Source: a virus
Taxonomy: Duplodnaviria > Caudoviricetes
Length of the DNA: 35,266 bases
Virus record (IMG/VR): IMGVR_UViG_3300009619_000002
Coordinates: 1 to 35,266 of that record
Reading direction: 5' to 3' (one strand)
Within the stretch, counting starts at the first letter, position 1. Each line of letters starts with the position of its first letter. A program made the translations under genes and the position numbers. Under the pieces are notes generated by a model that did not search any database, was not told where the DNA came from, and saw nothing but the letters and a program-made list of their open reading frames with translations. Positions 5,039 to 30,706 of the stretch are shown here, one piece after another.

Positions 5039-5108
5039 ATTTTGCTGGCCGACTGGAAAGAGTTTGTCTACGGAAGGCCCGTATTCCGGCCTTCCAAAAG
5101 GTTATTGC

Positions 5109-10751: not shown

Positions 10752-10780
10752 GTCCTACCGGGTTGCGCTAACCTGAGGAC
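10752..10780 (-). repeat. Late-region hairpin repeat, copy A (variant inner stem), upstream of E
   Basis: GTCCTCA-GGTTAGCGCAACC-CGGTAGGAC. Confidence 0.75.
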
Positions 10781-10832
10781 GGGTGTGATAAACGGGTCGA
10801 AGAACGGCGCCCCGAGCGCCGCCCCCGGTGGG

Positions 10833-11342
10833 TTACTGGCCGAGGATCGCGCGGACGGCGGCCATGCGATCGGTGCCGCCGATCATGTAGACGTTGTTGA
10901 TCACGTCGATTTCGACTTCGACAGCGCCGTTGATGGTCCATTTGAGGTAGGCGAGGGTGGAATTGACCTTCCATTCGGTGTCTTCGCCCGCCTTGGCGTT
11001 GCCGGGGTCGAGTTCCATGTGCCGGCCGCGCACGACCAGTTCGGCGGCAGTGGCCTGCATGGAGGAGCTGTCGCCCTGGTAGGCGCCGACGAAGCGGAGC
11101 ATTGCGCCATCCACCCGGGTGAGACCGAACTGGCGCAGCACGCCGACGACGAGACCGCCATAGGTGGCCGACATCTCGAGCTTTTCGAGGCCGAGGTCGA
11201 TATCGACGGGGGCGAGCATGCCGGAGCCGCGGTATTCCTCGCCCGCCATCTTCAGCTTGGGCAGCTCGATTTCCGAAGCGATGCCGAGATAATCCTGCCC
11301 GTCGTTGAAAACGCGGAAGTTCTTCAGTTTCTGGGGGAGCAT
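10833..11342 (-). CDS. FII: Major tail tube protein
   Basis: MLPQKLKNF, EEYRGSGM motifs. Confidence 0.93.
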   Translation of the reverse strand: MLPQKLKNFRVFNDGQDYLGIASEIELPKLKMAGEEYRGSGMLAPVDIDLGLEKLEMSATYGGLVVGVLRQFGLTRVDGAMLRFVGAYQGDSSSMQATAAELVVRGRHMELDPGNAKAGEDTEWKVNSTLAYLKWTINGAVEVEIDVINNVYMIGGTDRMAAVRAILGQ

Positions 11343-11355
11343 GGTGATCCTTTCT

Positions 11356-11436
11356 GCCCTACCGCGCTTTGCGCTGCTTGAGGGCGAGTTGTCCTATCGC
11401 GTCTTCTTTCGTCCTATCGCTGAGCTGCTTGAGGAC
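11356..11436 (-). repeat. Hairpin repeat copies B (11356-11385) and C (11411-11436) plus a half copy (11391-11400) between FI and FII
   Basis: GCCCTCAAGCAGCGCAAAGCGCGGTAGGGC and GTCCTCAAGCAGCTCAGCGATAGGAC. Confidence 0.85.
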
Positions 11437-11441
11437 AGGCG

Positions 11442-12593
11442 TCAGAGGCGGGCGACCTGTTCGCCGAACTGGGCGTAGAAACGGTCGGTGACGCGCTGGT
11501 TGAGCGTCAGGCTTTCGAGCGGGGCGGTGTCGGTGAACTCGTAATCGAGCGTCAGGCGACCCGCCGCGAGGCTGGCTGCGGTGTTGATGTTCGGATCTAT
11601 CGGCAGGACTTCGGCTCCGATGATGCGGCCTTCGGCCTTCAGTCCGCGGAAGAGCGCGTTGATCGTTTCGACGATGTCGCGGGCCAGCTGCGGGGTAAGC
11701 GGCTTGTCGATTGCCCAGGCGAGACCTTCGGCAATGGTGTCCTGCAGCGCCTGGCTGGTGCGTACGCGGCTTTCGAAGGACCAGAGCTGGTCATCGCTGC
11801 AGGTGCGGTTGCCCCAGAAGCGGTGGCCGTTGAGACGGACCATCGTGGTGACATCACCATCGTTGAGCAGGCCGGCGGTGTTCGACGAGTCCTGGAGGTC
11901 GAAGTCGATATCCTTGGTAAGACCAGCGACCCCGGCAATGGCGACGTTGGAAAGCGTCTTGTGCCAGCCCGTCTGCTCGTCGATCCTGGCGCGCAATCCG
12001 GCGGCGCGCGCGATGGCATCGCCCGCGAAGGCGGGGTCGGCCGCGAAGTCTGGCCAGATCAGCATGAGCTCGCGCTGCGAAAAGTTGGCGCGATAGGCGA
12101 GGGTGGCCGCGGTATCGGTACCGGTCGCCGCAGCATAGACGAAGCCGCGAAGGCGCTGGGCCACGGTGACGAGCGCTTCGGTGACGGGCTGCGTATCGTG
12201 CCCGGGCGCGACAAGGATGCGCGGCCGCACGCCGAGTTCGGTTTCAGCTGCGCGCAGCGCCTCGAGGCCGGTGAAGCTGCCATCGGACACGCCGCCGATG
12301 ATATTGGTTTCGGTTTCGGCCGCATCGGCGCCTTCGGGCACGCGAACGACCACGATGATCGGACTGGCCTGGTCCGCGATCGCGGCCAGCGCGGGGGCAA
12401 GCGTGCCGCTGGTGCCGGCCTTCGCAATCGCATCACGCATATCGGTGACGAGTGCGGGGCGGTTCGCGGGGAAGGCGGTATCATCGGCATCGGCGGCGGT
12501 TGCCACGAGACCGATCACGGCGGTCGCGACCAGTTTGAGGGCGCGGACACCTTGGGCGGGTTCGACGACGCGGATCCCGTGATAATAGGGCAT
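11442..12593 (-). CDS. FI: Contractile tail sheath protein
   Basis: YHGIRVVE, GWHKTLSNV, RFWGNRTC motifs. Confidence 0.95.
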   Translation of the reverse strand: MPYYHGIRVVEPAQGVRALKLVATAVIGLVATAADADDTAFPANRPALVTDMRDAIAKAGTSGTLAPALAAIADQASPIIVVVRVPEGADAAETETNIIGGVSDGSFTGLEALRAAETELGVRPRILVAPGHDTQPVTEALVTVAQRLRGFVYAAATGTDTAATLAYRANFSQRELMLIWPDFAADPAFAGDAIARAAGLRARIDEQTGWHKTLSNVAIAGVAGLTKDIDFDLQDSSNTAGLLNDGDVTTMVRLNGHRFWGNRTCSDDQLWSFESRVRTSQALQDTIAEGLAWAIDKPLTPQLARDIVETINALFRGLKAEGRIIGAEVLPIDPNINTAASLAAGRLTLDYEFTDTAPLESLTLNQRVTDRFYAQFGEQVARL

Positions 12594-12611
12594 GAAACGG
12601 TCCTTCCTAGT

Positions 12612-12974
12612 TCAGGCGGCCTGGTTGAGGCGGGGCAGCGGCACGGTCAGCCGCATGAGGCTGTTGGGTTCGGGGCTGTCGGTACGGTAGCCCTCGAGGA
12701 AGAGCGTGGCGGCACCGGCGCCGGTTTTTTCGAGCGCGCAGCGCACCAGGCGCAGACGCTTTTCCCAGCGGCGCAGCGCAGTGGCGGTCGCGGCGAACAG
12801 TGCGAGCCGGGTGGCATCGTTCAGGGGCTGGTCGAGCAGCTGCGGCAGCAGCGAGCCGTAGTCGCGCCGCATCACCCGGCTGCCGATCGGCGTCAGCAGG
12901 ATATCAGCGACGGATTGCGCAAGATGATCGTCACCATCGATAGCGGTGCCGAGGGTGCGGGACATGCCGGTCAT
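12612..12974 (-). CDS. W: Baseplate wedge protein gpW (gp25-like)
   Basis: HLAQSVADILLTPIGSRVMRRDYGS; ATGA overlap with V. Confidence 0.92.
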   Translation of the reverse strand: MTGMSRTLGTAIDGDDHLAQSVADILLTPIGSRVMRRDYGSLLPQLLDQPLNDATRLALFAATATALRRWEKRLRLVRCALEKTGAGAATLFLEGYRTDSPEPNSLMRLTVPLPRLNQAA

Positions 12975-13561
12975 GCGGGCGGCCCCGATTGCGACTGGCC
13001 GGAAGCAACTTCGCCGTGAAGGTGGTCCTCGAGGCTGACACCTGCGCCGGTCACGTCGCCGTCGGCGCGGATCGCACCGGTGATTTCGAGATCGCCGTCG
13101 ATCGTCACATTGCCGGTGATCGCCAGTTCGGCCGAGCCGACGTCGATCGACACGCCGCCGGTCGAGCGAATGGCGAGGGTAGCGTTGTCGGGAAGGGCGA
13201 GTTCGAGATGGTGGCCTTCCGGATCGTAGCTCAGCTGTGCGCCGTCGGCGAAGAGAATGAGTTCGGTCAGGCTGTTGCCGGCCGGGGGAAAGCTGTCCTG
13301 CGGAATCGCGCCGATGCAGATCGCGCGTTCGAGATCGCCTTCGGGGCACAGGAGAAGGACCTGTTCGCCGACGCTGGGCGGTGACCAGATACGGGTGTCG
13401 CCCGCGCGCCCGGTGCTAAAACGAATGGGGGCGCTGTGGACCTCGCCGGTTTCGACCTCGACCGTGCCGGCGTCCAGATCGACGGCAAGGACGGTTCCTT
13501 CGCGCAGGATGGCGCGCGGATCGACGGGGTCTTCGTCTTCAGGGCGGGGCTGGATGAACAT
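12971..13561 (-). CDS. V: Baseplate spike protein gpV
   Basis: WSPPSVGEQV, FADGAQLSYD, C-terminal HLH iron-binding motif. Confidence 0.92.
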   Translation of the reverse strand: MFIQPRPEDEDPVDPRAILREGTVLAVDLDAGTVEVETGEVHSAPIRFSTGRAGDTRIWSPPSVGEQVLLLCPEGDLERAICIGAIPQDSFPPAGNSLTELILFADGAQLSYDPEGHHLELALPDNATLAIRSTGGVSIDVGSAELAITGNVTIDGDLEITGAIRADGDVTGAGVSLEDHLHGEVASGQSQSGPPA

Positions 13562-13606
13562 CGCGGGCAATCATGCCGCGAGAGGAAGCGTCATCCATCC
13601 CCGCGC

Positions 13607-13632
13607 TGTTGTGCGCGCGCTGCCTTACAACA
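13607..13632. promoter_or_regulatory. Late-activator (Ogr) box upstream of V
   Basis: TGTTGT-N14-ACAACA inverted repeat; identical arms at 21355 and 27710. Confidence 0.8.
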
Positions 13633-13636
13633 GGGG

Positions 13637-13831
13637 CTAGCTTTCGGCGGCAGCGGCCTGCTTGCGGGCCCGCGGAGCGGGAGCCACGTCGGCGGCGGCA
13701 ATTGCAGCCTTCAGCGCATCGCGCTGCGGACCTTCGGCCATGGCGGCTGCGGCAGCGCGGGCCTTGTCGACGAAGGCGCGGGGCAAGCCCCTGGCGTGGG
13801 TCAGAAGGTGGATGAACTTCTCGGTCGTCAT
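13637..13831 (-). CDS. Small hypothetical protein (64 aa)
   Basis: GAGG SD; ATGA overlap with spanin gene. Confidence 0.6.
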   Translation of the reverse strand: MTTEKFIHLLTHARGLPRAFVDKARAAAAAMAEGPQRDALKAAIAAADVAPAPRARKQAAAAES

Positions 13832-14448
13832 GGCTGTATTTCCTCGGACTTGTTCGGATCGATCGCTGTCTGCTGGCGGATCCAGTCGATCAGGGCGTCG
13901 AGCTGGAGGGCCTGTTCCGTGGCGATGAGGTTTCGCTCGAGCTCTTCAGCGGCGGCGAGGGCTGCTGCAGGAAGTCGAGGATCCTCGGGCGCTCCAGCAA
14001 TTCCTGCGGCGGTAGCGGATAGGCCGGGCACTGCGAGACCTGCGGGCGCAGCTGCAGGCTGGGTTCGGGCCTGTAGTTCTTTGCGCAGCCGGTCAGCGCG
14101 AGTGCGAGCAGCGGCAAGACGAGAAGCGTAGCCCTGGCGAATGGCATCGGAAATCTCCTGTTGTTCGGCACGGATGCGTTCGAGGCGCGCGCGCTCGAGG
14201 CGCTGGGCTTCGCGGGCCGCCTCGGCGATCCGTATCTTGGTTTCTCGGTGGGCGGTGCGTTCGGCATCGCGCTCGTTCGCGCGCAGCTGCGCGGACTTGA
14301 TCCAACCGGTGACGCTGACCGGCCAGATGTGGAAGCCTTCGAGCCGTACGGTCTGGACGACCAGCGCGGCGCCCAGCAGGACGACGACCAGACCGGTCAG
14401 CCCGATACGCGCGGCGAAGGCGGCGACGCGCTGTTGCAGGGACTTCAT
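13828..14448 (-). CDS. Inner-membrane spanin (Rz-like)
   Basis: N-terminal TM followed by coiled coil; directly after endolysin. Confidence 0.75.
   Translation of the reverse strand: MKSLQQRVAAFAARIGLTGLVVVLLGAALVVQTVRLEGFHIWPVSVTGWIKSAQLRANERDAERTAHRETKIRIAEAAREAQRLERARLERIRAEQQEISDAIRQGYASRLAAARTRADRLRKELQARTQPAAAPAGLAVPGLSATAAGIAGAPEDPRLPAAALAAAEELERNLIATEQALQLDALIDWIRQQTAIDPNKSEEIQP
13890..14147 (-). CDS. Embedded outer-membrane spanin lipoprotein (Rz1-like)
   Basis: AGGAG SD, signal peptide with lipobox LALTGC, Pro-rich mature part, nested in another frame of the Rz-like gene. Confidence 0.75.
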   Translation of the reverse strand: MPFARATLLVLPLLALALTGCAKNYRPEPSLQLRPQVSQCPAYPLPPQELLERPRILDFLQQPSPPLKSSSETSSPRNRPSSSTP

Positions 14449-14888
14449 TCCTGAATTCCCGGCAAGTAGCGGGTGCGGCCCGCAATACGCTTGGCCGAGA
14501 GTTCCATGTTGCGCAACGCGCCGGCGCGATAGCTGACATGGACCCAGCGGCCGAACTCGTAGATCAGCTGATCATACTGAAGATTGCGGTGCATCCACCT
14601 CGCCAGATCGAGGACGCTCACGCCGGGAACAGTAAAGTCGGCGGCTTCGCCCTTGCAATGCTGGCTGGTGGAAGACCCGCCGATCGCGCGATTGAGTTCC
14701 GGCGAGCGATAGCCACTGGAAACGATGACGGGCCTGTCGAAGTGTGCGCGGACAGGCTCCAGCACTTCGATGCTAAGCGCCTTCAGCGCCGCGATTTCGC
14801 TATCGCCAGGCGTGTTGTCGATGCCCCGCCGCGCAGCGGTCTGCGAAACGGTCATCTCCGCGAGCGTAAAGTGGGGAGAGAGTTTCAT
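14445..14888 (-). CDS. Endolysin, peptidase M15A family
   Basis: LSPHFTLAEM, SSGYRSPELNRAIGG, SQHCKGEAAD, WVHVS motifs. Confidence 0.9.
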   Translation of the reverse strand: MKLSPHFTLAEMTVSQTAARRGIDNTPGDSEIAALKALSIEVLEPVRAHFDRPVIVSSGYRSPELNRAIGGSSTSQHCKGEAADFTVPGVSVLDLARWMHRNLQYDQLIYEFGRWVHVSYRAGALRNMELSAKRIAGRTRYLPGIQE

Positions 14889-15178
14889 GGTGCGTCGCTC
14901 CAATGCGGGGGCGGGACGTGGCGCATGATATGGACGAAACGCCAGGCTCCGTAGAGGATGAGAGTGAGGTCGCCGGATTGGCGTAGCCAGGGGATCGCCT
15001 GGCCGGTGAGCCAGGCATCGATCTGGCCAATGCCCAGCAGGGCCAGAGCCACGCCGAGGAGCCAGGTTTTCCAGGCACGCCAGGTGCCGATACGGCGAAG
15101 AGCAGGCGCGGCATGGTGCCACAGAAGGACCGCGATGATGATTTCGACCAGTCCGGTCAGGAGGTGGAACAGTTCCAT
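14885..15178 (-). CDS. Three-TM membrane protein, holin candidate
   Basis: MELFHLLTGLVEIIIAVLLW...; three hydrophobic segments, coupled to endolysin. Confidence 0.6.
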   Translation of the reverse strand: MELFHLLTGLVEIIIAVLLWHHAAPALRRIGTWRAWKTWLLGVALALLGIGQIDAWLTGQAIPWLRQSGDLTLILYGAWRFVHIMRHVPPPHWSDAP

Positions 15179-15552
15179 CAGTCCTTCCCCCCGGGAAGGC
15201 GGAATTCGGAAGGCAATCTGCCGGCGCGCGCCACCGCGCCCTTGCCGAAGCTTGCGAGTGCGCCTCCGACCCACCGCGAAGCCGCGCCAGCAATGGCCAT
15301 AACCAGCTGCAGCGGCCAGTCGTCCAAGTTTAAAGGAAGGTGCGGGTGCGCGATCGCCGCGACCAGACAGACAACGAGGCCCGCGAACAGCGTGGCCCAT
15401 ACTGTCATTCGGCTTTCGGGCGGCGTGAAGAGCATGCTCGCGTAGGTGGTCGCCAGCCCGACGATCATGCCGCCGACCAGGTCAGGCAGCGGCGCGGCGA
15501 TGCCGAGGGCCAACGCCAGCCAGGCCAGCATCGCTTTCAGTTCGATACCCAT
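15178..15552 (-). CDS. Multi-TM membrane protein, holin/antiholin candidate
   Basis: About four hydrophobic segments, charged C-terminus; TGATG coupling. Confidence 0.6.
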   Translation of the reverse strand: MGIELKAMLAWLALALGIAAPLPDLVGGMIVGLATTYASMLFTPPESRMTVWATLFAGLVVCLVAAIAHPHLPLNLDDWPLQLVMAIAGAASRWVGGALASFGKGAVARAGRLPSEFRLPGGKD

Positions 15553-15676
15553 CAAAGGTCTACTTTCTTTGGCGACTGTGCGGTTCGCGAGCCCGGTGGG
15601 GTTAAGTGACTGAAACGACTCGACTCTGTGGGCTCGTTAAGGCACCCTCCGCCAATCGCTGGAGCGGAGGGTGCCA

Positions 15677-16003
15677 ATGGTTGCTGCGGGTAAAGATCGA
15701 CAAGGAAACTCAAGAGCTTTCACGGTAATGCTCGAGGCCGCTCATCAGAGAGGGATAGGGATTTCCCCCTTGGACAGTGACTATTCCTTTGAACCTGCCC
15801 CCCCGATTCCCAAGCAATGGTATTTCTCGGAAAGTTGCCCCGATTGCGGTCGCGAAGCGCCCTTTTTCAGGGATCCCACTGGCGGAAAGGCTGGAACTCC
15901 GTTCAAGGGACCGCATTCGTTTCATACTTCTTGTGACGCTTGCGGCGGGAAAGTGTCGGCTCCCGTGGAGACAGTTTCGTCGAAACAGTGGCGCGGTCAC
16001 TAA
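15677..16003 (+). CDS. Moron: small double-CxxC (zinc-ribbon) protein
   Basis: CPDC...CDAC; GGAGG SD; opposite strand to flanking late genes. Confidence 0.6.
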   Translation: MVAAGKDRQGNSRAFTVMLEAAHQRGIGISPLDSDYSFEPAPPIPKQWYFSESCPDCGREAPFFRDPTGGKAGTPFKGPHSFHTSCDACGGKVSAPVETVSSKQWRGH

Positions 16004-16178
16004 TCGCGCCAAAATCTTCCGGGCGAAGCGGCGGGTGCTTGGGTGGCATTCAACTGTTCCTTTCTCTGAGCGTGGGGAGGTGGGTTCGCGCATCACAATC
16101 CGGCCTTCTGGACTGAGTGAGCGTTTCCATCGGGCAGGCTGAAACACGCTCGCGCGATCAAGGGGCGATCGCGCAGCA

Positions 16179-18203
16179 TCATGCGACGAACGAGATGCTA
16201 AGCCGCACCTCGAACTGTTCGTTGGCCGCCACGAAATCGCTCATCTTCTTCACCAGCCCGTCGTCGTGGCCGACGATATGGGCCGCGTCGGTACTGTTCT
16301 TCTTGAGGAATACCGGCTTCGACGAAGCGCCCGTGGTCACGTTGCGAATGTGCCCGGTACCCAGCATACCCTCCGCGGGCAGCGAATAGCCGAACAGCGA
16401 GCCCAGGCCGGTCACCGACAGGACGGAAGCCTGTGCCGAAGTCAGCGTACCGGCCAGAGTGATCGTGGCAGTACAGGTTTTGCCGATCACTTCGTATCGG
16501 ATGGACCGTGTCGTCCAGGCAGCTGCAAGGGCCGCGCCGGTCGAACCGTTCGACATGCCGACAATTGTGCCATCGTCGGTTCCCGAAGCCAGATTGTCGA
16601 AGGGGATGCCAGCAATCGAAATGCCGTTCTGGAAATCGGGTCGCGCGCCTTCATATCGCTTGCCGTTGAACCCGTCATAGGTGAACTGGACCGGCGCCAG
16701 CACATTCACCCGGTTGTTGCCGTTCACCAAGGCGAACACTTCGTTTCGCCCGCCTTGACCCTGATAGGCCCAGCCCGGGGCATATGTGAGCGTGCAGGTG
16801 TTCTGTGCGCCTTCCAGCATGAAGGCGCGGCCGTGAATATCGGTTGCGGTGTATCCGCCGCCCACATCGGCTTCGACGTATGAAATTTCGCAGATATTTT
16901 GCGTATCCGCACAGCGGATGACACCTTGCGAGAAGTGCCCTTGCGCGGTGGCCACTCTCAGCCAGTTTCGCACGCCGCTTTGGTTGTTGATCGCATAGCC
17001 GGTCACCTGGAATGCCGAGCGAACAAAAATCAGCATTCCGTTCTGATTGCGAAGCCCGCTTTCAACGTCGATGTAGACTGCATCGCCGCCACAGCGGGCT
17101 GCGCGGACGGTGATGTCTGAATAGTTGGTGCCGTTGCCCTCGGTCGTGACCAGCCCGACAGCAAAACATTTCGAGCGCTTCTTGCCGGTGGTCGGTTCGT
17201 TCGCCTGATTGCCATTGGCGGTGTATTCCGACCTGCCAGGGTAATTGTCGCCGCCGCAATAAGCGACGAACACATCACATTTGAAGCGCTTGCTGGACAG
17301 GATCGCCGGATAGTATTCGGTCATTCCGTTGTCGTTCGGATCATTCGAACCCTGACCCTGGATGCCGAGGAACACACCGCACCAATCGTTCACCAGAGAG
17401 GTGAAAGCGTAGTCGTTGCCCGCCTTGCGGATTATGCGGGCTTCGGCATTTGGCCCATGAATTTCGACGGGGCCGTGGTTGCCGAGTTCAACCGCTGATC
17501 CGAGGTAATATTCCTTGCCAGGTTCTGGCGCCGGAACCGTGACGCGCGCCGCCACGACGCTGGAATATCCCGCGGCATCGCATGCAGCCTGGAATGCCGG
17601 TTGATCGTCGGCGCCGGTCTGAGTGTCATTGTCCCAATCGCCCTTCGCGCCAAATGCGCGGACGTTGTAACTGCCATCAGGACCCGGCAGAACGTACAAC
17701 TTCACACCCCCTGCGGTGACAAGGTGGTGGTCGGCAGCGACAATCACAGCTTCGCGGTAACGGTGCCCGTCTGCATGCCATATCGATCCTGCGCCGCGCG
17801 CCGGAAAGACGGAAGCGAGCATATCAGCAACGGTCGGTTCACCGATGAGGTCGAGACCCTTACCGCTAGCGGGGGTGGCCAAGTCAATCGTCGGGGCGAG
17901 CGGGGACACCGGCGCCGAACCTGCGGCCGTTCGCTCATATCGCGAATAGGTGCGGGGGGTATCGCCATTCCAAACCCGGAAGAATTGCCCCTCAGGAGTT
18001 GCTTCTTCGCCCGCTGCCCTGCTTGGATATGAATGGCCTTGCAGTATTTCCTCCGCAGACGCCGCTGCAGCTTCGGCCCGGGCCGATGCCATATCAGTCA
18101 GCTGCGCAACGGTTGTCCTTCGCGTGCGTCCGCCCTGCACGATCGGCAGGGTTTCATCGCCCAACGGCGAACTGGCTTGGGGTAGGTCATTAATTTTTGC
18201 CAT
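16179..18203 (-). CDS. Tailspike/second receptor-binding protein with pectin-lyase-like beta-helix (putative depolymerase)
   Basis: NVRAFGAKGD...DDQPAFQAACDAA beta-helix cap; Asn/Gly-rich body. Confidence 0.8.
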   Translation of the reverse strand: MAKINDLPQASSPLGDETLPIVQGGRTRRTTVAQLTDMASARAEAAAASAEEILQGHSYPSRAAGEEATPEGQFFRVWNGDTPRTYSRYERTAAGSAPVSPLAPTIDLATPASGKGLDLIGEPTVADMLASVFPARGAGSIWHADGHRYREAVIVAADHHLVTAGGVKLYVLPGPDGSYNVRAFGAKGDWDNDTQTGADDQPAFQAACDAAGYSSVVAARVTVPAPEPGKEYYLGSAVELGNHGPVEIHGPNAEARIIRKAGNDYAFTSLVNDWCGVFLGIQGQGSNDPNDNGMTEYYPAILSSKRFKCDVFVAYCGGDNYPGRSEYTANGNQANEPTTGKKRSKCFAVGLVTTEGNGTNYSDITVRAARCGGDAVYIDVESGLRNQNGMLIFVRSAFQVTGYAINNQSGVRNWLRVATAQGHFSQGVIRCADTQNICEISYVEADVGGGYTATDIHGRAFMLEGAQNTCTLTYAPGWAYQGQGGRNEVFALVNGNNRVNVLAPVQFTYDGFNGKRYEGARPDFQNGISIAGIPFDNLASGTDDGTIVGMSNGSTGAALAAAWTTRSIRYEVIGKTCTATITLAGTLTSAQASVLSVTGLGSLFGYSLPAEGMLGTGHIRNVTTGASSKPVFLKKNSTDAAHIVGHDDGLVKKMSDFVAANEQFEVRLSISFVA

Positions 18204-18655
18204 CAGGTCGCCTTCCCGGTTTCAAACTGCGGCCAGTCGGCGTGATCTTTGACGGCGATTTCGCTCAGTTCGGTCGCTGAAGCGGCGGCGATTTCCGCCT
18301 CGATCCTTCCACAAGCGCAGCGGATTGCATCGATCGCTTCGAAGCGCCGCGCGCCGGCGGGCGTTGGGTCGCGCAGATCGTTGATTTGGCGCCATTCGGG
18401 GCTGAAGGCGCGAATGCGGCGCGACGCTTCAGCGCGGGTGGTAGAGATCAGTATCTGCCTGCGCTCTTCTATCTCGGGGAAGCGGGCGCGCGGGTGTCCG
18501 TTAGGTGTGGGGACAATCACTGCCCCCCTGGCCTGGGCAGACATAAGTTCGCGATGGCGGTCGGATGTCACTTCGACAGCATCGTCGGGTGTAGCCGCGC
18601 CGTGAATTTCCGAAGTGTAGAAGCCACCCGTTCTCGCGCTGTAAAACAAGCTCAT
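18203..18655 (-). CDS. Tail fibre assembly protein
   Basis: FYSARTGGFY...PDDAVEV...ELMSAQARG motif; follows H. Confidence 0.8.
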   Translation of the reverse strand: MSLFYSARTGGFYTSEIHGAATPDDAVEVTSDRHRELMSAQARGAVIVPTPNGHPRARFPEIEERRQILISTTRAEASRRIRAFSPEWRQINDLRDPTPAGARRFEAIDAIRCACGRIEAEIAAASATELSEIAVKDHADWPQFETGKAT

Positions 18656-18659
18656 GGGA

Positions 18660-19766: not shown

Positions 19767-20409
19767 CGATTTCATGCTCCAGGAAGGTGCCTTCGCCGCC
19801 GCGCAAGGGCTCGCCGTCTTCGGTTTGCAGGTAGGTCGCCCAGAGCGGGTCAAGCGGAGTGGCCAGATCGGTCAGACCGTCCTGGCGGACGAAACCGGCG
19901 ATGTGGCCGCTGCCGGCAATGTAGGTGCCAGCCTGCACGACCAGGCGATGAACGGCCTTCATGTGCGCCCGCAGTGGCTTGACCGCCGCGATGTCGCGCA
20001 ACAGCGCTTCGACCAGCGCCTGATCGTACTGGACGGCGCTGTCGGCGGCCAAGGGAAGTTCGAGGCGGAAGGTATGCGGCTCGAGATTTTCCTTGTCTTC
20101 GAACCATTCGACCAGACCGATCATCGGATCGAAGCGGTCGAGAACTTCGCGCAGGGACGCCGGCGTTCCCTTGCGGCGCTGGGCTTCGATCGCGCCGGCA
20201 ATGGCGGTACGTTTTTCGGCTTCGGTCCAATCGGTGTCCCAGAAGTCGATCGATACGCCGAAGGCCAGAAATGGCAGAAGTTCGCGCGGGCAAGTGGCGG
20301 GATCCCAAAGCGAGCGGATCGGCGCGGGCACGTCGCTGAGCCGGGCGCTGGCATCGGCCAGCGAACGCTCGAGAAAGCTTGAACCGGGGGGAAGGAGGTC
20401 CGCGCTCAT
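19759..20409 (-). CDS. I: Tail protein gpI
   Basis: LLPPGSSFLE, LWDPATCP, KGTPASL motifs. Confidence 0.92.
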   Translation of the reverse strand: MSADLLPPGSSFLERSLADASARLSDVPAPIRSLWDPATCPRELLPFLAFGVSIDFWDTDWTEAEKRTAIAGAIEAQRRKGTPASLREVLDRFDPMIGLVEWFEDKENLEPHTFRLELPLAADSAVQYDQALVEALLRDIAAVKPLRAHMKAVHRLVVQAGTYIAGSGHIAGFVRQDGLTDLATPLDPLWATYLQTEDGEPLRGGEGTFLEHEIDG

Positions 20410-21308
20410 TCGGGCGAGACCTGGGCGCTGATCGTGATTTGCCGAGGTGCGGACACCTGGGTTCGCGCGATCAGAATGTCGGCAGCGGGTGACTGCAAGT
20501 CGACGCGCTGGACACCGCCCACGTGAAGGGCGGCGATGATCGCGCTGCGCGGAACGTCACGGCCGATGCGGCGTGCGCGATCGTAGAGCTCGCCGAGCGA
20601 GGCGGCCGCCTGTTCGAGAATGAAATTCTGGTCAGGGCCGGCAAAGACTTCGAGCACAGCCACGGTGTCAAAAGGTACGAGCTGGACGGCCTGTACGGTG
20701 ACCTGGTCAGTGAGCGGGCGAACGGTATCGCCTGCGACAGAAGCCTCGACAGTTTCAAGCACTTCGGCGGCCGGGACGCCGTCGCCCGAGCGCGAAAGCA
20801 CGACGACGACGACTTCGCCCGGGGCGGGACTGAAGGCATCGGCGTCGGCAACGTCCGGATCGGCGGAGAGGGCGTGGTAGCGATACGCACCGACGGGCCC
20901 TGCGACCGAATAGCTTTCGGGCGCGAGGAGTATCCGCGTGCGCAGGTCGAGATCGCTTTCGTAGACGGCAGCGGTCCCGGCGCCGGGATCTTCGGGCACG
21001 AGGATGAGGCGCGTGACGCCGAAGAGCGCGCCAAGCTGGTCGAGATCGGCACCCGTTGCCGAAGCCACCATGACCGCGCGGCAGGCTTCGTTGACCCGCT
21101 GGCGCAGGAGCAGCTCGCGATAGGCGGCGACCTGCAATACCTTGATCGCCGGATCGGCATCGCCGAGCTGGTCGAAGGCGGGATCGCGCGCGACGAGATC
21201 GGCCTTCATTGCAGCAAGGATCGTTTCGTAATCGAGCGGCTCGACGACATCGGGCGCGGCGAGGCGCGAGAGATCGACAGCGGTAGAGGAGGAAATGGAG
21301 CCGGGCAT
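20406..21308 (-). CDS. J: Baseplate protein gpJ
   Basis: DLSRLAAPDVVE, YRELLLRQRVNEA, SVAGPVGAY, VRPLTDQV motifs. Confidence 0.95.
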   Translation of the reverse strand: MPGSISSSTAVDLSRLAAPDVVEPLDYETILAAMKADLVARDPAFDQLGDADPAIKVLQVAAYRELLLRQRVNEACRAVMVASATGADLDQLGALFGVTRLILVPEDPGAGTAAVYESDLDLRTRILLAPESYSVAGPVGAYRYHALSADPDVADADAFSPAPGEVVVVVLSRSGDGVPAAEVLETVEASVAGDTVRPLTDQVTVQAVQLVPFDTVAVLEVFAGPDQNFILEQAAASLGELYDRARRIGRDVPRSAIIAALHVGGVQRVDLQSPAADILIARTQVSAPRQITISAQVSPE

Positions 21309-21354
21309 CGGGCGCGACTATGCGCTTGGCCCGGCAGGCGGGCGAAGCGGGCGC

Positions 21355-21380
21355 TGTTGTGCGAGCGCCCGCTTACAACA
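21355..21380. promoter_or_regulatory. Late-activator (Ogr) box upstream of J
   Basis: TGTTGT-N14-ACAACA. Confidence 0.8.
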
Positions 21381-21383
21381 TGG

Positions 21384-21602
21384 TCAGCCGGGTAAGGGGG
21401 CCGGGCCTTGGGTTTCCTGCCGCCGCAGCAGATCGACGACCCAGAAGTCCAGCCCGCGCAGCAGCGCGGCAAGCGTGTGCGGCGCGGGCTGGTCCTCGAG
21501 CGCTTCGAGCATTTCGGCAAGCCCGGCGATGGCGCTGCCGATATCGGAAATCTCGCCGATCAGTTCGGCCCGGCGCAGCAGGTCGGCATCGTGCCGGGTC
21601 AT
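21384..21602 (-). CDS. Small hypothetical protein (72 aa, MTRHDADLL...)
   Basis: ATGA-coupled to upstream ORF. Confidence 0.6.
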   Translation of the reverse strand: MTRHDADLLRRAELIGEISDIGSAIAGLAEMLEALEDQPAPHTLAALLRGLDFWVVDLLRRQETQGPAPLPG

Positions 21603-21850
21603 GCGATGCCGACCTTCGAGACGATATCGCTGCCGCGCTGGAGGACATCCTCGCAATTGAGCGGGCCGCGGCGCTGGTCGATGCCGTAGCGCAGCCGGCC
21701 GGGGTAATGGCCGGGATGCTCGCCAAGGTCGAGCGGGTCGTATTCATCATCGGTGTCCTCGAGGTCGGGATCACCGTCGACGGCATCGAGCAGGCCAATC
21801 AGCTGATCGATCGCGGTTTCGATCTCCGCGCGGGACGAGGTATCGAACAT
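21599..21850 (-). CDS. Small acidic hypothetical protein (83 aa, LLDAVDGDPDLEDTDDE)
   Basis: TGATG-coupled to upstream ORF. Confidence 0.65.
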   Translation of the reverse strand: MFDTSSRAEIETAIDQLIGLLDAVDGDPDLEDTDDEYDPLDLGEHPGHYPGRLRYGIDQRRGPLNCEDVLQRGSDIVSKVGIA

Positions 21851-21987
21851 CACGCACCCCCTGCCAGCGGTGAACCGTCGGGCGCGTAGCCATCCCACAG
21901 ACGGCGCAGCAGCGCGGCGCGGGTGGCGGCGGGAACCGGTTGCGGTGATTTGAGGGTGGCGGTATCGGTGCGTTTAGCTTGGGTCAT
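21850..21987 (-). CDS. 45-aa hypothetical protein (MTQAKRTDTATL...)
   Basis: GGAG SD; stop overlaps the next ATG; below ORF-track cutoff. Confidence 0.55.
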   Translation of the reverse strand: MTQAKRTDTATLKSPQPVPAATRAALLRRLWDGYAPDGSPLAGGA

Positions 21988-22015
21988 CGGACTTGTACTC
22001 CGTGGCTTGAGTTAG

Positions 22016-22084
22016 GGCCGGTGGAGAAGTTGGCGCTTCCCATCGGCCTGATTTGGTGTTAACCTGAATTCATGAGCAAGTCAA
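22016..22084 (-). promoter_or_regulatory. Sigma70-like promoter plus leader hairpin for the three-ORF cassette
   Basis: TTGACT(22084-22079)-N17-TAACAC(22061-22056), then hairpin GGCCGATGGGAAG-CGCCAA-CTTCTCCACCGGCC. Confidence 0.6.
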
Positions 22085-22251
22085 CTGGGGATAACACGAG
22101 ATCAACACGCCCTCCACAAAGGGGTGTACTCGTCGGCGTCCGGCTCCAGCCAGACGAGCTGGAACCTCTCGACAAATGGCGGAAAGCAGAGAGCGACGAG
22201 CCCTCGCGTCCCGAAGCGATTCGCCGCATCCTGAGAAAAGAATTCGGCTGA
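22072..22251 (+). CDS. Ribbon-helix-helix (Arc/CopG-like) regulator, 59 aa
   Basis: GVLVGVRLQPDELEPLDKWRKAESDEPSRPEAIRRIL; stop overlaps next ATG; below ORF-track cutoff. Confidence 0.75.
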   Translation: MSKSTGDNTRSTRPPQRGVLVGVRLQPDELEPLDKWRKAESDEPSRPEAIRRILRKEFG

Positions 22252-22571
22252 TGTGGGAAGCTGTCGTATTTTCCTGCTGGATCGGAACGATATTCGCCCT
22301 GATCATTGCCGAATGGCGGCATTCGGGGATCGACGCGATCGGCAAGTTCGGGGCTCCGGTCCTGCTGGTTGCATCCTTGCTCGGCATCGGGCTGTCGGGC
22401 TGGTTCGTAATCGCGATCTTTTGCATGGCAGCGGGCGTGGCCGCGGCCCCGCAAAGTGCCGCACGCAAGGAAGAGATAGCGCGCAGCAAGCGTGAGATGG
22501 CCATTGAGTTGGATCCCGCGACGCGCGCTGAAGAGCTGAATGCGATCGAGGAGGATCAGAGGCAAGGCTGA
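22251..22571 (+). CDS. Two-TM membrane protein (possible superinfection exclusion)
   Basis: MWEAVVFSCWIG...; two hydrophobic stretches and charged tail. Confidence 0.65.
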   Translation: MWEAVVFSCWIGTIFALIIAEWRHSGIDAIGKFGAPVLLVASLLGIGLSGWFVIAIFCMAAGVAAAPQSAARKEEIARSKREMAIELDPATRAEELNAIEEDQRQG

Positions 22572-22623
22572 TCGCTGCCGACCGGGGCGACCGGCAGCTG
22601 GGCGAGGCCGGGTTCATCCGCGT

Positions 22624-23112
22624 CTAACGCGACCACGCCGGGTTGTCGTCGAACCATTTGAGCAGTTCTTCGGTCAGCGCGTCCATGTCTTCGCTGTCGA
22701 GGCCCAGGAGCGGGCGGGCCGGGAAATCACCTTCGACCCTCCGCCCTTCCGAATCCCGGCCAACGGCCATCCGACCGCCGCTGTGGTGCCGAGCGGCGAT
22801 GGGATTGGCGAAATAGACCTTGGCACTATCGGGCGTAGCGTGGAATTTCAGATGATCCGCCTTGTAGAGGTTGCGGAACATCAGCCTGCTCTTGATCGTG
22901 CGCTTGCCCCTTCGGATGCGGCGCTTGCGTTTACGCGGGGCCATCTTGCCGCCATCGGGTTCGACATTGCGCTTGATCCGATCGCGGTTCCTGCGGCGCA
23001 GCTCGCGCGCGATCTTGACCGCGACTTTCTTGCGCTTCGCCGGCGAGAGATCGGATAGCATGGCATCGAAATACTCACCGACGACCTCCATGGCTTCCAC
23101 GCCTTCAATCAT
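22624..23112 (-). CDS. S: Tail completion/virion morphogenesis protein gpS
   Basis: RIKRNVEPDG, PARPLLG motifs. Confidence 0.9.
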   Translation of the reverse strand: MIEGVEAMEVVGEYFDAMLSDLSPAKRKKVAVKIARELRRRNRDRIKRNVEPDGGKMAPRKRKRRIRRGKRTIKSRLMFRNLYKADHLKFHATPDSAKVYFANPIAARHHSGGRMAVGRDSEGRRVEGDFPARPLLGLDSEDMDALTEELLKWFDDNPAWSR

Positions 23113-23585
23113 GAAGCCAGGTCCTCGCCGCCGATCACGAGGCCGGACAGACCAACCGCATCACCGATGCCTTCGAAACTGTCATCGATCGCCGGTTCGG
23201 GCAGATATTCGAACCCGTCTTCGGTCCGGCGCACCGCTTCGCTGAGCTCCAGCGAGAGCTGCAGATCGATGCGTTCGTCATCGATGATGTCCGCCTGCAG
23301 TTCCACCGGGCTGCCTTCATGCGACAGCAGCAGCTCGGGCTGATGGATCCGCAGCCAGTCGAGCACGAGCGCGAGGACGGTGTTGGCATCGCCCTTGAAG
23401 TCGAGCAGCACCGCCTCGAGCCGGTAGGCCCATTCGAAACTGGCGACACCAGTCGAGGTGCCGGGCGCAGGACGCGCGCGGACGCGGCCATTCTCGACAT
23501 AGACGGCGAGCCTGTCGCGCGCGCGGCCGTTGAATTCGGGAAAGGCATCGGCGAGATGATCGCGGAGGAGCTGGGGCTTGCGCAT
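23109..23585 (-). CDS. R: Tail completion protein gpR
   Basis: MRKPQLLR, SFEWAY, WLRIHQPELL motifs. Confidence 0.9.
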   Translation of the reverse strand: MRKPQLLRDHLADAFPEFNGRARDRLAVYVENGRVRARPAPGTSTGVASFEWAYRLEAVLLDFKGDANTVLALVLDWLRIHQPELLLSHEGSPVELQADIIDDERIDLQLSLELSEAVRRTEDGFEYLPEPAIDDSFEGIGDAVGLSGLVIGGEDLAS

Positions 23586-23591
23586 TTTTGT

Positions 23592-23617
23592 GTCCTACCA
23601 CTTCGTTGCTTGAGGAC
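23592..23617 (-). repeat. Hairpin repeat copy D overlapping the RBS of R
   Basis: GTCCTCAAGCAACGAAGTGGTAGGAC-ACAAAA-ATG. Confidence 0.9.
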
Positions 23618-23629
23618 CGGGGGACACAT

Positions 23630-23839
23630 TCAATCCCACAGCTGCACGATGTCGCGGGTTTCGGGCGCGGCGATCGCGACGTCCGGCAGGACGACGCGCG
23701 TGCCGAGGGGAAGGACCGGACCCAGATCGGCAATGCCGGGATTGGCTGCGACCGCGACTTCGACAACTCCGGCAGTGCGGCCGAGCTCGCGCCAGCAGAT
23801 GAGGTCGAGTGTGTCGCCTTCGATCGAGAGGACGTTCAT
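23630..23839 (-). CDS. X: Tail protein gpX
   Basis: GDTLDLICWR, ANPGIADLGPVLP, VQLWD motifs. Confidence 0.93.
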   Translation of the reverse strand: MNVLSIEGDTLDLICWRELGRTAGVVEVAVAANPGIADLGPVLPLGTRVVLPDVAIAAPETRDIVQLWD

Positions 23840-23946
23840 CGTCCTACCGCTTCGCTGCTTGAGGAGAGCATTTCCGGCCCTACCGCTTCGCTGCTTGAGG
23901 ACGGTTTTGCGCGTCCTACCGCTTCGCTGCTTGAGGACGGGGTCAT
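23836..23946 (-). CDS. Candidate 36-aa repeat-encoded coupling ORF (MTPSSSSEAVGRAKPSSSSEAVGPEMLSSSSEAVGR)
   Basis: ATGA overlap with the L stop and ATGA overlap with the X start. Confidence 0.5.
   Translation of the reverse strand: MTPSSSSEAVGRAKPSSSSEAVGPEMLSSSSEAVGR
23841..23938 (-). repeat. Three tandem hairpin repeats (E, F, G), 36-bp period
   Basis: Identical core TCCTCAAGCAGCGAAGCGGTAGG with 13-bp variable linkers. Confidence 0.95.
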
Positions 23947-24422
23947 ATCAGCTCGACCGAAGTGCGGGTGACGCCGAGCATGTCGCGTATCGCGAGGGTG
24001 GCCAGGCGGCGGAGTTCGCCGGCGGCATCGCGGCGGGCCTCGTTGCGTTCCTGGCCTTCACCGGTGGCGGCGATATCGGAATGGGTTTCGGCGAGTTCGG
24101 CAGCTGCGGCATGGAAGACCGCGCGGCGGTAGAGCAGCTCGACAGCCGGTTCGCCGTCGATCTCCTCGCTACCAACTGCACCGAGGGTGGCAGCGCCCGC
24201 CAGGACGTGGCCCGCCTTCCAGAGCCGGAGTTCGCCGCGGACCTGTAGCATCCCGCCACGAAGCGCGGCGCGTAGACGCGCAGGATCGACTTCTTCGGGG
24301 ATCCGCATCTCGGACTGGAAACCCGCGATCGACAGGCCCGGCCAGAAGGCATCGCCCGCGACGAGGTCGGCAGGATCCTCGAGGTCGGGTCCCGAGGGAG
24401 GAGAGGCTACGAAGCCGGATAT
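23943..24422 (-). CDS. L: Head completion protein gpL (apparent ATA start)
   Basis: (M)SGFVA...FWP...MRI...LYRRAV...AIRDMLG..TSVELI; AGGAGG SD 5 nt before ATA. Confidence 0.85.
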   Translation of the reverse strand: MSGFVASPPSGPDLEDPADLVAGDAFWPGLSIAGFQSEMRIPEEVDPARLRAALRGGMLQVRGELRLWKAGHVLAGAATLGAVGSEEIDGEPAVELLYRRAVFHAAAAELAETHSDIAATGEGQERNEARRDAAGELRRLATLAIRDMLGVTRTSVELI

Positions 24423-24542
24423 GTTAGCCTCCTATCGTAAGCCACGAATCCGGGGGTGAGGAAGCGCGCTGCGCGGGAACCGGGGCAAGCCCCGTTCGTG
24501 CATGTCTTCCGCCCCCGGGCGCCGTGGGGCAGATTTTTGTCC

Positions 24543-24568
24543 GTCCTACCGCTTCGCGGCTTGAGGAC
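24543..24568 (-). repeat. Hairpin repeat copy H in the M-L interval
   Basis: GTCCTCAAGCCGCGAAGCGGTAGGAC, outer stem extended by CC/GG. Confidence 0.9.
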
Positions 24569-24579
24569 GGGCGTTCGGT

Positions 24580-24690
24580 TCAGGCCAGCTTGGTGCCGAC
24601 CCAGATAAGTCCGCCGACGATCGCGACGATCGCCAGCACGTATTTCAGACATCCGAAGAGAAGCTTATTCTCCATGCCGGGCACCGCCAT
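24580..24690 (-). CDS. 36-aa single-TM peptide (MAVPGMENKLLFGCLKYVLAIVAIVGGLIWVGTKLA)
   Basis: TGATG-coupled to M; clear hydrophobic helix. Confidence 0.55.
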   Translation of the reverse strand: MAVPGMENKLLFGCLKYVLAIVAIVGGLIWVGTKLA

Positions 24691-25472
24691 CAGGCTTCCT
24701 CGACAGAGAGCTTGCGGATAGTGTTCTCGACGCGTTCGATCGATTTCTTGACGCCCGCCTTGTCGTCGAAGGCGAGGGCGCGTTTGTAAGCTTCGAGCGC
24801 GGTCTGGAAGCCGCGCTTGCGACCCCCGGCCTGCGCGAGATCGGCGTCTTCAGCCCCGTCGGTCGCACGCTCGATCGCCATGCCGATGGCCTTGTGCAGT
24901 TTGGCACGGGCCTGATCGGGCATGTCGTGATCGGTGGTGAGATCGGCGATTTCGACCAGCGGGGCATAGTCGGCGATGTGGGCCTTGTCGGTCGACATGG
25001 CCTTGAGCGCCGTTTCGGCGAATTCCTCGGCCACAAGGCAGCCGGGCGTGCGGTCGAAGCGCTGCGGCAGTTCCATGCCGTGGCGGAAGAAAATGCGGAT
25101 GCGCGGCAGGGCACGTTCGTGATCCGCGCAGTCGATCGCCCAGACCATCGTTTCGACCAGCACGTCGTCCTGGTCGATCAGCTGGCCCTTGCCTTCGGCG
25201 GCCTGCGCGGCCTCGAGGACGCCGTCTACCCAGGGATCGTATTTGGGAAGCATCGCGGCCTTTGCCTCGATCTTCGACGCGACCGACTGCATGTTCTTGA
25301 GCACGCCGAGGTCCTCGCCGATCGCGGCGCGCTGCAGTTCGTATTCGTTCGCCCGGGTCGGATCCCCGGAAGCGGCAGGCTGGCCGCTGGTGCCGGGGCG
25401 CGCAGCCGTCTTGGCCGGCGTTGACTTGGCGGCGAGTTTCCGGGCGAAGCTGCGCTGGGCGGGACTGGGCAT
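24690..25472 (-). CDS. M: Terminase small (endonuclease) subunit gpM
   Basis: MPSPAQR, YDPWVDGVL, DMPDQARAKLHKAIG, GVKKSIER motifs. Confidence 0.93.
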   Translation of the reverse strand: MPSPAQRSFARKLAAKSTPAKTAARPGTSGQPAASGDPTRANEYELQRAAIGEDLGVLKNMQSVASKIEAKAAMLPKYDPWVDGVLEAAQAAEGKGQLIDQDDVLVETMVWAIDCADHERALPRIRIFFRHGMELPQRFDRTPGCLVAEEFAETALKAMSTDKAHIADYAPLVEIADLTTDHDMPDQARAKLHKAIGMAIERATDGAEDADLAQAGGRKRGFQTALEAYKRALAFDDKAGVKKSIERVENTIRKLSVEEA

Positions 25473-25545
25473 GGTGGAGATCCTCTGCTTGCCTGGCCGA
25501 ACGGTTTATCCGGCCAGGCTATTCGATGTTCAGCGAGCCGCTGCC

Positions 25546-26565
25546 TCAGGCAGCCGGTGCGGCGGTGATGTTCTCGATCACGCAGCAGTAATCGTGGTCC
25601 TCGATCACATAGGCTTCGTTGTCCGAGCGGTAATCGGTGACGCGGTCGTATTCCGGTTCGTCCTTCACCAGGCGGCGCTGCTTGCCTTCCTGGTCGTAGA
25701 TCGAGAGGTTGTCGAAGCGGGTGATCATGACCGTCCCGGCCGGGAAGAAGGGCACGCGGGTGGCCGGATGGCCGCCGAGGCGCTTGGTGGACATGATGAC
25801 ATCGCGCGCGAGCTGGTTTTCCGGATCGTGCTGCGCGTTGATCAGCGGGAAGTACTTGTCGTGCAGCAGGTCGCGGCTGACGATGGCGACCAGTTCGGTA
25901 TCTTCCACCGCCCAGGGAGCGAGCAGCTGGTTGGTCGCATCGTAGATCAGTGCGTCGAGGTTCTCGTAATCGCCGCCCGGACCATAGGTGACCTGGCCGC
26001 TGGTATCGACGATTTCGTCCATCACGCGTTCGGGCGCTTCGGTGCGCATTTTCTCGAGCCAACCGATGTTGACCGTCTCGCCGAGCGGATCGGCCGCGCG
26101 GTCGACCACGGGAGCGGCGCTCTTGCCGTTCATGCCGATGCGGATCTTGTCGAGCGAGATTGCGCGGACGATGTGATCGCGGATGCGTTCGTGGAAGTCG
26201 GGGTATTTGGCCCACATGTCGAGCTTGCCGTAGCTCAGGAAGGTGTCGAAGTTGGTCTGGAACAGTTCGTAGCCGTGCTTGTCCAGGCCGCTCGGATCCG
26301 TCGGCTCGCGGCGGTTGCCGCCGGCGGTGTCAGTGCGGCTGCCTATGGGGGAGGCGACCGAGAGGCCGAGCTTTTCGCCCTTCATTTCCGGCACGGTGAC
26401 CATGTTGATGCGGCTGAGGAATTCGGACGATTCCTGCTGCTTGTCGATCAGCGACTGCTGTGCGGTCGGCTCGACGTTGAATTTCACGGTCGCGTCGGAC
26501 ACGCCGTTGAGCTGGGCGGTGTTCTCGAGATACTCGTTGAAGAGCTCGCGGGTCTGGTTGCGCAT
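25546..26565 (-). CDS. N: P2-family major capsid protein gpN
   Basis: MRNQTRELF, FNVEPT, QESSEFLSRIN, QTNFDT, LDMWAKYPDF motifs. Confidence 0.97.
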   Translation of the reverse strand: MRNQTRELFNEYLENTAQLNGVSDATVKFNVEPTAQQSLIDKQQESSEFLSRINMVTVPEMKGEKLGLSVASPIGSRTDTAGGNRREPTDPSGLDKHGYELFQTNFDTFLSYGKLDMWAKYPDFHERIRDHIVRAISLDKIRIGMNGKSAAPVVDRAADPLGETVNIGWLEKMRTEAPERVMDEIVDTSGQVTYGPGGDYENLDALIYDATNQLLAPWAVEDTELVAIVSRDLLHDKYFPLINAQHDPENQLARDVIMSTKRLGGHPATRVPFFPAGTVMITRFDNLSIYDQEGKQRRLVKDEPEYDRVTDYRSDNEAYVIEDHDYCCVIENITAAPAA

Positions 26566-26572
26566 TCTATCA

Positions 26573-26598
26573 GTCCTAACGCTTCGCTGCTTGAGGAC
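26573..26598 (-). repeat. Hairpin repeat copy I overlapping the RBS of N
   Basis: GTCCTCAAGCAGCGAAGCGTTAGGAC-TGATAGA-ATG. Confidence 0.9.
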
Positions 26599-27564: not shown

Positions 27565-27709
27565 GGTTTGCTCCGGCTCCCGTCAAACACAGCGGGCTCC
27601 GGCGAGAGGGGGGACCGGAGCCCGGCCGCGACGGCCCCAGGAAATGAGAGCCGCGCGACTGAGATCGGCGACAAGGGGCACGAGGCGGGCGTTCTTCTCA
27701 AGCTGGCGC

Positions 27710-30658: not shown

Positions 30659-30706
30659 TCCGCTAGCGTTAGGAACCGGTTAACCACGGCGGGTTAACAT
30701 TTGATC

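Follow-up and report, generated by a model that had tools for sequence, protein, structure and literature searches.

A hairpin repeat of about 36 bases at gene junctions of a P2-like phage is probably a non-autonomous mobile DNA element

It is still not settled how repeats shorter than 40 bases, such as REP, RPE, and SDR, spread when no transposase lies next to them. Among them, the cyanobacterial SDR4-6 that Elhai et al. described in 2008 are reportedly mobile hairpins of 21–27 nt with compensatory changes and tandem arrays, and are said to have no known transposase. Here we describe a repeat of about 36 bases, composed of a 26-base bulged hairpin and an A-rich stretch, in the IMG/VR virus record IMGVR_UViG_3300009619_000002, a complete viral record of 35,266 bases that was analysed over its full length (hereafter, the window). 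We consider it probable that these hairpins are a non-autonomous mobile DNA element colonising phage gene junctions, rather than a dedicated RNA switch. Such spread is tractable in this repeat, which is found at high density in inducible temperate phages whose Erythrobacter/Qipengyuania-type hosts can be cultivated, offers cleanly resolved filled and empty sites, advances in a constant step of 36 bases, and bears a sharp sequence signature.

In the parts of Di Nocera et al. (2013; PMC3733652) that characterise REPs of the GTAG and CGTC types, these are imperfect palindromes of 20–40 bp that occur in tens of copies per genome, patchily across species, and mostly between genes with some in frame, features that the present repeat shares. 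The REP families are defined there by the terminal GTAG or CGTC tag and by inverted dimers. By contrast, our repeat has no unpaired terminal tag: GTAG is internal to the 3′ arm, where it pairs with CT in the 5′ arm, and A precedes TAG in ~35% of copies (often GATAG). It also forms head-to-tail arrays instead of inverted dimers (head-to-head or tail-to-tail, HH or TT), has no adjoining RAYT, and is strongly enriched in prophages. As for the CGTC REPs and the NTS/SRM repeats, the SRM pattern with its HGTC end overlaps none of 206 single copies, and the base at position −1 is T in only 25%. The NTS/SRM are likewise short hairpin repeats, which Ssn GIY-YIG single-strand nucleases read on single-stranded DNA, as set out in portions of Chenal et al. 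(2025; PMC11893778); however, no GIY-YIG gene was found directly beside the repeat or flanked by it here. Rickettsia palindromic elements (RPE) are also palindromes found in frame in unrelated housekeeping proteins, to which they add a recurring peptide (passages in PMC10969869 and PMC3733652), but they measure ~150 bp (same passage of PMC10969869), whereas the present unit has ~36 nt, or 12 residues, and is carried by free-living Alphaproteobacteria, two Actinomycetota-labelled bins, and phages. Unlike MITEs, the repeat shows no general target-site duplication. A hairpin of the kind said to mark the SDRs is present (26 nt, with covarying outer pairs), but in a different phylum and with no insertion into HIP1 or heptamer repeats noticed, and this likeness is by description only.

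Overall, the repeat behaves like a REP while lying outside the REP families tested, and like kin of the REP/RPE/SDR-type repeats. The family is apparently uncatalogued, although it is set apart from REP families and SDRs partly by description. A literature search by motif strings, peptides, and description, with most subscription journals outside its scope, found no earlier account of it. Rfam returned a tRNA alone at the gathering level and one chance match (E 1.8) within 23400–24700, and blastn of a 110-nt array query against INPHARED and PLSDB, which has low sensitivity for 26-nt units, gave no match.

Across 305 copies with distinct flanks, the unit consists, in order, of two variable outer pairs and CCT, then a bulge of CAA, G-Y-A, a GC stem of two pairs that carries a three-base loop, G-R-T, AGG, and finally 8–9 A-rich bases. 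The first flanking pair is paired in 289 of the 305 copies against 98 expected, and the second in 279 against 217, while pairing from the third flanking pair outward is at chance level. In a 30-sequence alignment, 96% of cells pair, a value reached by none of 500 shuffles. A first-pass annotation of the window, made by a model from the sequence, had proposed that compensatory changes maintain the structure. This holds for the outer base pairs but not for the Y-R position of the inner stem, which is not a constrained pair and shows no covariation (C-A in 78 of 631), nor for the window copies at 23841 and 23877, in which the outer stem is broken or wobbled. The same annotation regarded CCTCA and G(G/A/T)TAGG as fixed; in copies from outside the window, G replaces the first C of CCTCA in a covarying manner, leaving only CT(C)A and G.TAG fixed.

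The loop follows a simple rule. In a genus-wide search with A, C, or G permitted at the first loop position and no constraint on the other two, a G-N-A loop was counted by hand in 126 of the 150 listed matches (first G in 134, middle A in 96, last A in 137). A larger figure, 550 of 613, is inflated because most of those loci were fetched by loop-constrained patterns. Among 64 loops, GNA alone forms the very stable mini-hairpin in DNA, and its equivalent in RNA is considerably weaker, according to the relevant part of PMC13037366. The GNA rule points to the DNA form without proving it. Together with a scan of the window, it supports the alternative that the annotation had offered, namely a REP-like DNA element built on the GCGAAGC mini-hairpin with no RAYT in the window. 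The predicted form of the repeat is a single-stranded DNA hairpin, which some enzyme likely moves.

Filled and empty versions of the same sites point to discrete insertions. An empty homologue was found for 25 of 272 single sites, and across 21 distinct empty/filled pairs, several rows of which represent one pheS site, the net insert was 36 nt in 13 pairs, 33 in three, 38 in two, and 35, 39, and 42 in one each. At pheS, 6 of the 28 rows aligned have exactly 36 extra nt, and two different pairs of flanks are represented among them. Phages whose flanks are 93–100% identical differ in their copies, with gains and losses at shared junctions; a 36-nt skip in run X12 was not counted, as it may be an assembly effect of the repeat. 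Direct repeats indicative of target-site duplication are not in excess at 17 of 18 lags, the remaining one, lag 38, giving 12 against a shuffled maximum of 10, and short duplications occur at some stop/start overlaps (L161, L480; loci, genomes, contigs, and runs are given by our own labels). Microhomology at empty sites, suggested by a few cases, was not supported (mean 4.05 vs. 3.93, p = 0.79, n = 21). At L432, L439, and L372 the A-run is already present in the empty site and can thus be target-derived.

The gap beside tRNA-Thr is a hot spot, with 1–5 matched copies in either orientation (L260, L305, L312, L315, L325, L349, L436, L478, L496, and L528), and the site is filled in the two orientations at four and six loci.

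Where copies stand in tandem, the period is 34–36 in 67 of 86 cases. Array neighbours share flanks and tails (tail sharing 0.74 vs. 0.35), so the arrays arise by local duplication. Mixed-strand arrays were absent among 277, and the few inverted neighbours involve looser variants only (L161). Of the 73 coding copies in the first set, 58 plus four are in sense and 11 in antisense, and the 58 read xSSSEAVG; in-frame copies are found in PheS, TyrS, PheT, Fmt, ThiC, GidA-family, and phage proteins. In-frame 36-nt arrays at L203:9212-10058 and L234:5001-8346 also occur inside or beside a phage lysozyme-like gene and, in AT-richer hosts, behind the signal peptides of paralogous outer-membrane-like genes.

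The repeat is widespread but patchy. Its exact 22-mer core is found in 57 IMG/VR stretches, some from one contig, which include P2-like, Mu-like, and other phages; matches to a loose viral pattern were mostly single and were set aside as chance. A slightly degenerate pattern is present in an estimated ~2,000 GTDB stretches, of which 121 were fetched, and among the 80 titles listed, Erythrobacteraceae, Rhodobacterales, Caulobacterales, Rhizomicrobium, and other Alphaproteobacteria predominate, alongside a few Actinomycetota bins. The copy numbers of five carrier genomes are 5, 10, 26, 30, and 6, with both strands used. The pattern was detected in 12 of 401 genomes of an alphaproteobacterial class sample (its centre genome included); one genus sample had it in 53 of its 61 genomes, at 0–9 copies each. 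In G303, 8 of 29 copies lie on one 43.5-kb prophage contig. Contigs C8, C9, C10, and C12 of G003 carry one shared element variant, and the two of them that were fetched, L462 and L463, hold an identical small-terminase region, which suggests a multiplied prophage.

In the window, PHROG matches identify a leftward P2-like virion set (O, N, M, L, X, R, S, J, I, V, W, FI, FII, E, T, U, and D), with P and Q rightward, and a repressor block, an integrase, and a terminal tRNA-Asn are also present. The host is likely Erythrobacter/Qipengyuania-like, because the prophage tRNA end and its flank have matches of up to 97% among genomes sampled from Sphingomonadaceae, including one that belongs to the Qipengyuania genus sample. 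Ten matches to the pattern CCTCA-N10-25-GDTAGG were found, every one on the (−) strand, against a chance mean of 0.22 and a maximum of 1 in 100 shuffles. A covariance model, which was built partly from the window copies and matches these by construction, gives exactly nine full copies at E ≤ 3e-6, the next match having E = 0.45. These searches bear out the nine full copies reported in the first-pass annotation, and the half copy at 11391 that it listed was also recovered. All copies are, as it had said, intergenic, on one strand, and within the leftward late operons, and the 3′ arm does end 7 nt before the ATG of N, 6 nt before that of R, and 1 nt before that of X.

All features described below are on the (−) strand, and every full copy matches the covariance model. 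A diverged full copy lies in the FII–E gap, upstream of E’s own Shine-Dalgarno (SD) sequence (10752..10780, E 2.8e-6), where the relative L160 has a canonical copy. A full copy with a lengthened inner stem is found just upstream of FII’s own SD (11356..11385), followed by the half copy, of which the sequence shows the 3′ arm only (11391..11400); both are missing from one contig of run X14, a weak observation in which the short side has 30 letters. Another full copy, 5 nt past the FI stop (11411..11436), is not in L158, whose flanks are 98–100% identical. The X–R gap holds a full copy with AGGA 7 nt before R’s ATG (23592..23617), the M–L gap one at 24543..24568, and the O–N gap one with AGGA 8 nt before N’s ATG (26573..26598). 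The N–M junction (25473..25545) is empty here, whereas L002 has two copies at this place and L001 and L501 three each.

Between L and X, three units form a tandem array of period 36 (first unit 23913..23938, second 23877..23902, third 23841..23866). A 36-codon mini-open reading frame (mini-ORF) with three SSSEAVG units, read from the sequence, runs through the array (23836..23946); the ATG of this frame overlaps the stop codon of L, and its TGA the ATG of X. It would preserve translational coupling of L to X, and in the distant relative L389, which has no such array, the L stop and X start overlap directly.

A further, degenerate copy had been suspected at 24430–24462, over the SD of gpL. The tenth pattern match lies here. 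This is not a full member, as the covariance model does not match it, but its 3′ part is a half copy (24427..24437, from the sequence and SD scoring), a 3′ arm that makes the AGGAGG found 5 nt ahead of the ATA at which gpL likely starts (24422). A full copy, with the 11-mer of this half copy duplicated, is present at this site in L001, L002, and contigs of X9 and X12. The 5′ part of 24430–24462 is a piece of the GC-rich M–L hairpin, which is also found in L003 and L005, both without the repeat.

Orientation and distance to translation starts were assessed with genes from our own codon-usage caller, which gives no SD bonus; AT-rich loci were left unassigned, and some phage calls inside coding sequences near N-termini are probably mis-called starts. 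Intergenic copies are sense or antisense in 53 and 29 cases in phages, 30 and 20 in chromosomes, and 20 and 15 in metagenome contigs, a further 34 sites being unassigned and 24 flanked by genes on opposite strands. Each strand of the unit terminates in an SD-like run, AGG for the sense strand and GAGG for the antisense. In phages, the peak in distance to the following start is at 8–10 nt for sense copies (11 of 44) and at 7–10 nt for antisense ones (9 of 24). For N and R the best SD match is the 3′ arm, as it is, in the form of a half copy, for L, and P2-like copies are mostly sense; for these reasons, a secondary effect on translation is possible. FII and E have their own SDs downstream of the copies, and in L003 and L004, which lack the element, N is preceded by an AGGA-type SD of its own. 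Predicted SD accessibility is 0.50 for N and 0.26 for R, compared with 0.17–0.63 for late genes without the element.

A number of observations weigh against a mobile DNA element. No movement event was caught directly, and no helper was found: none of the enzymes sought (RAYT, GIY-YIG, or reverse transcriptase) is in the window, a non-exhaustive Pfam search detected no Y1 transposase, GIY-YIG, or reverse transcriptase among the neighbour proteins scanned (67 of 113 and 96 of 174 listed), and in five element-rich genomes RVT_1 is absent while Y1_Tnp is found in only one, with no copy within 8 kb of the gene. Orientation is non-random: all six window sites are sense (p ~0.02–0.07), as are 28 sites against five in distant P2-like phages, all 12 near P2-like sites, and all 38 coding copies in chromosomes and metagenomes. 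In several distant P2-like lineages, R, FII, E, and T are again preceded by the element. Its density in prophages is far above that in chromosomes, with nine copies in 35 kb here against 0–5 in 3-Mb relatives of the likely host (five genomes among the best-scoring matches to the prophage tRNA end). In addition, 16% of loops are non-GNA, and predicted folding energies are modest, a typical copy folding no better than shuffles (z ~ −1). The sense bias fits selection on mRNA or protein or transcription-coupled insertion, yet it also fits an RNA role, and prophage density and the P2-like sense bias leave room for late-mRNA co-option or a phage-dependent mechanism.

Other searches for a helper bear on the neighbourhood of the copies. 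GIY-YIG matches occur in all five genomes, the closest ~1 kb from one copy with two genes between, and the sole tyrosine-recombinase match (L260) is on the far side of a tRNA. When 1,168 ORFs from around the copies at 282 loci were clustered, only orthologous hot spots emerged, with no recurring nuclease or transposase.

The first-pass annotation had favoured a phage cis-regulatory RNA that coordinates virion output, and had named dispersal over the host chromosome and random orientation as findings that would speak against it. In substance both were observed, since copies are dispersed over alphaproteobacterial chromosomes in both orientations; they also lie inside coding sequences and are gained or lost between phages with nearly identical flanks. 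The consistent orientation upstream of related genes that is expected of such an RNA is not seen, as both orientations, unrelated genes, and coding sequences are involved. A narrower version, in which the hairpin was co-opted in P2-like phages to tune ribosome access or mark processing sites on late mRNA and is selected for virion ratios, seems unlikely to us. It would account for the sense bias at P2-like sites (28 of 33 distant and 12 of 12 near), for the recurrence before R, FII, E, T, and L, for the arm being the best SD match of N and R, for an X array that retains an ORF coupling L to X, and for the contrast between nine copies per 35 kb and 0–5 per 3 Mb. Yet among capsid-matched loci the repeat is present in just 2 of 36, both near-identical to the window, its copies vary between phages that are otherwise 93–100% identical, and it is mostly antisense in other prophages (G003, 4 of 4; G303, 6 of 9). 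Moreover, the SD accessibility of N and R is inside the range of genes without the element, FII and E use downstream SDs of their own, the recurrent junctions amount to nearly every gap in these operons, and Rfam holds no match. A covarying hairpin before start codons can stem from insertion and tolerance, and a regulatory RNA is not required.

RNA-intermediate movement has reportedly been proposed for the cyanobacterial SDRs. An A-tailed hairpin RNA that is copied back or recombined into DNA would fit the A-rich 3′ stretch (50% A), the 38:0 sense bias in coding regions, and the lack of an adjoining DNA transposase, but we regard this route as quite unlikely. No RVT_1 was detected in the 5 element-rich genomes, the A-run pre-exists in several empty sites, and the loop rule is that of DNA. 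The sense bias also follows from the peptide, which is small and polar in the sense frame (SSSEAVG) and hydrophobic in the antisense frames.

It is very unlikely that the repeat is a single-stranded DNA signal serving the phage (primase/primosome loading, or an exonuclease block on displaced strands) and kept dense in prophages for that reason: prophage enrichment speaks for it, as does the resistance of GNA mini-hairpins to 3′ exonuclease and their presence at G4 and RSF1010 priming sites and the N4 promoter (in the portion of PMC13037366 dealing with them), but a replication-strand lock was not supported (27 of 60 chromosomal loci look leading, and single prophages use both strands), most P2-like relatives lack the repeat, and in-frame copies in host housekeeping genes are left unaccounted for.

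Other candidates fit less well. A likeness to RfaH ops/JUMPstart was considered, together with one to kink-turns and primosome sites, and the antisense and in-frame copies argue against ops. An intrinsic terminator does not fit, as the 3′ flank is A-rich and the T-run on the other strand sits 5′ of the hairpin. For a CRISPR array, periods of 34–36 nt leave only ~10 nt, shared between neighbours, versus unique long spacers.

A mobile DNA element remains our preferred reading. The comparisons above show that new copies arrive at unrelated sites as net insertions of 33–42 bases, mostly 36, with no general target duplication or microhomology, and that arrays grow by local head-to-tail duplication. 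A protein may read the fixed internal loop CT-CAAG-Y-A / G-R-TAG on the G-N-A-capped DNA hairpin, much as RAYT or Ssn enzymes recognise their own repeats. Temperate phages, rich in single-stranded DNA during replication, would be the main niche and the carrier between hosts, and compact operons would keep the harmless copies, that is, in-frame protein loops and junctions with an SD match or stop/start coupling. The simplest reading of the copies before N, R, L, and X is therefore a filter on insertions that preserve translation. More tentatively, a host or phage enzyme unlinked to the element could cut and insert the 36-base single-stranded mini-hairpin during prophage replication; because both strands end in an SD match and the unit keeps frame, the element might then act as a portable ribosome-binding/linker module that rewires junctions and adds loops to essential proteins.

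Several further features of the window and its relatives were observed. No ATG, GTG, or TTG is found at the homologous start of gpL (24422-23943, −). An ATA codon 5 nt past the perfect AGGAGG opens a 159-aa gpL frame that matches the N-termini of L003 and L004, and the ATA is kept in L001 and L002; from the sequence, gpL likely starts at a non-canonical AUA. In Mu-like loci (L175, L195, L200, and L218, compared with L176), an SD-like run is directly followed by ATC at the large gene past the insertion site, whether that site is filled or empty, and this ATC is possibly another non-canonical start. The GC-rich GGGGGCGG hairpin region between M and L (24450-24520, −) is kept in L003, L004, and L005, and a similar run lies between FII and E (10800-10830, −). 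A 442-aa unknown protein adjoins a D12-class adenine methyltransferase (3710-5993, +), and a membrane protein with PHROG matches of unknown function has a likely GGDEF-type C-terminus (30701-32470, +). Finally, a TTGT...ACAACAGCGC motif upstream of O, J, and V (~27670-27700, 21350-21380, and 13590-13620, −), with a counterpart at the equivalent place in L161, resembles an activator site for late promoters, distinct from the hairpin family.

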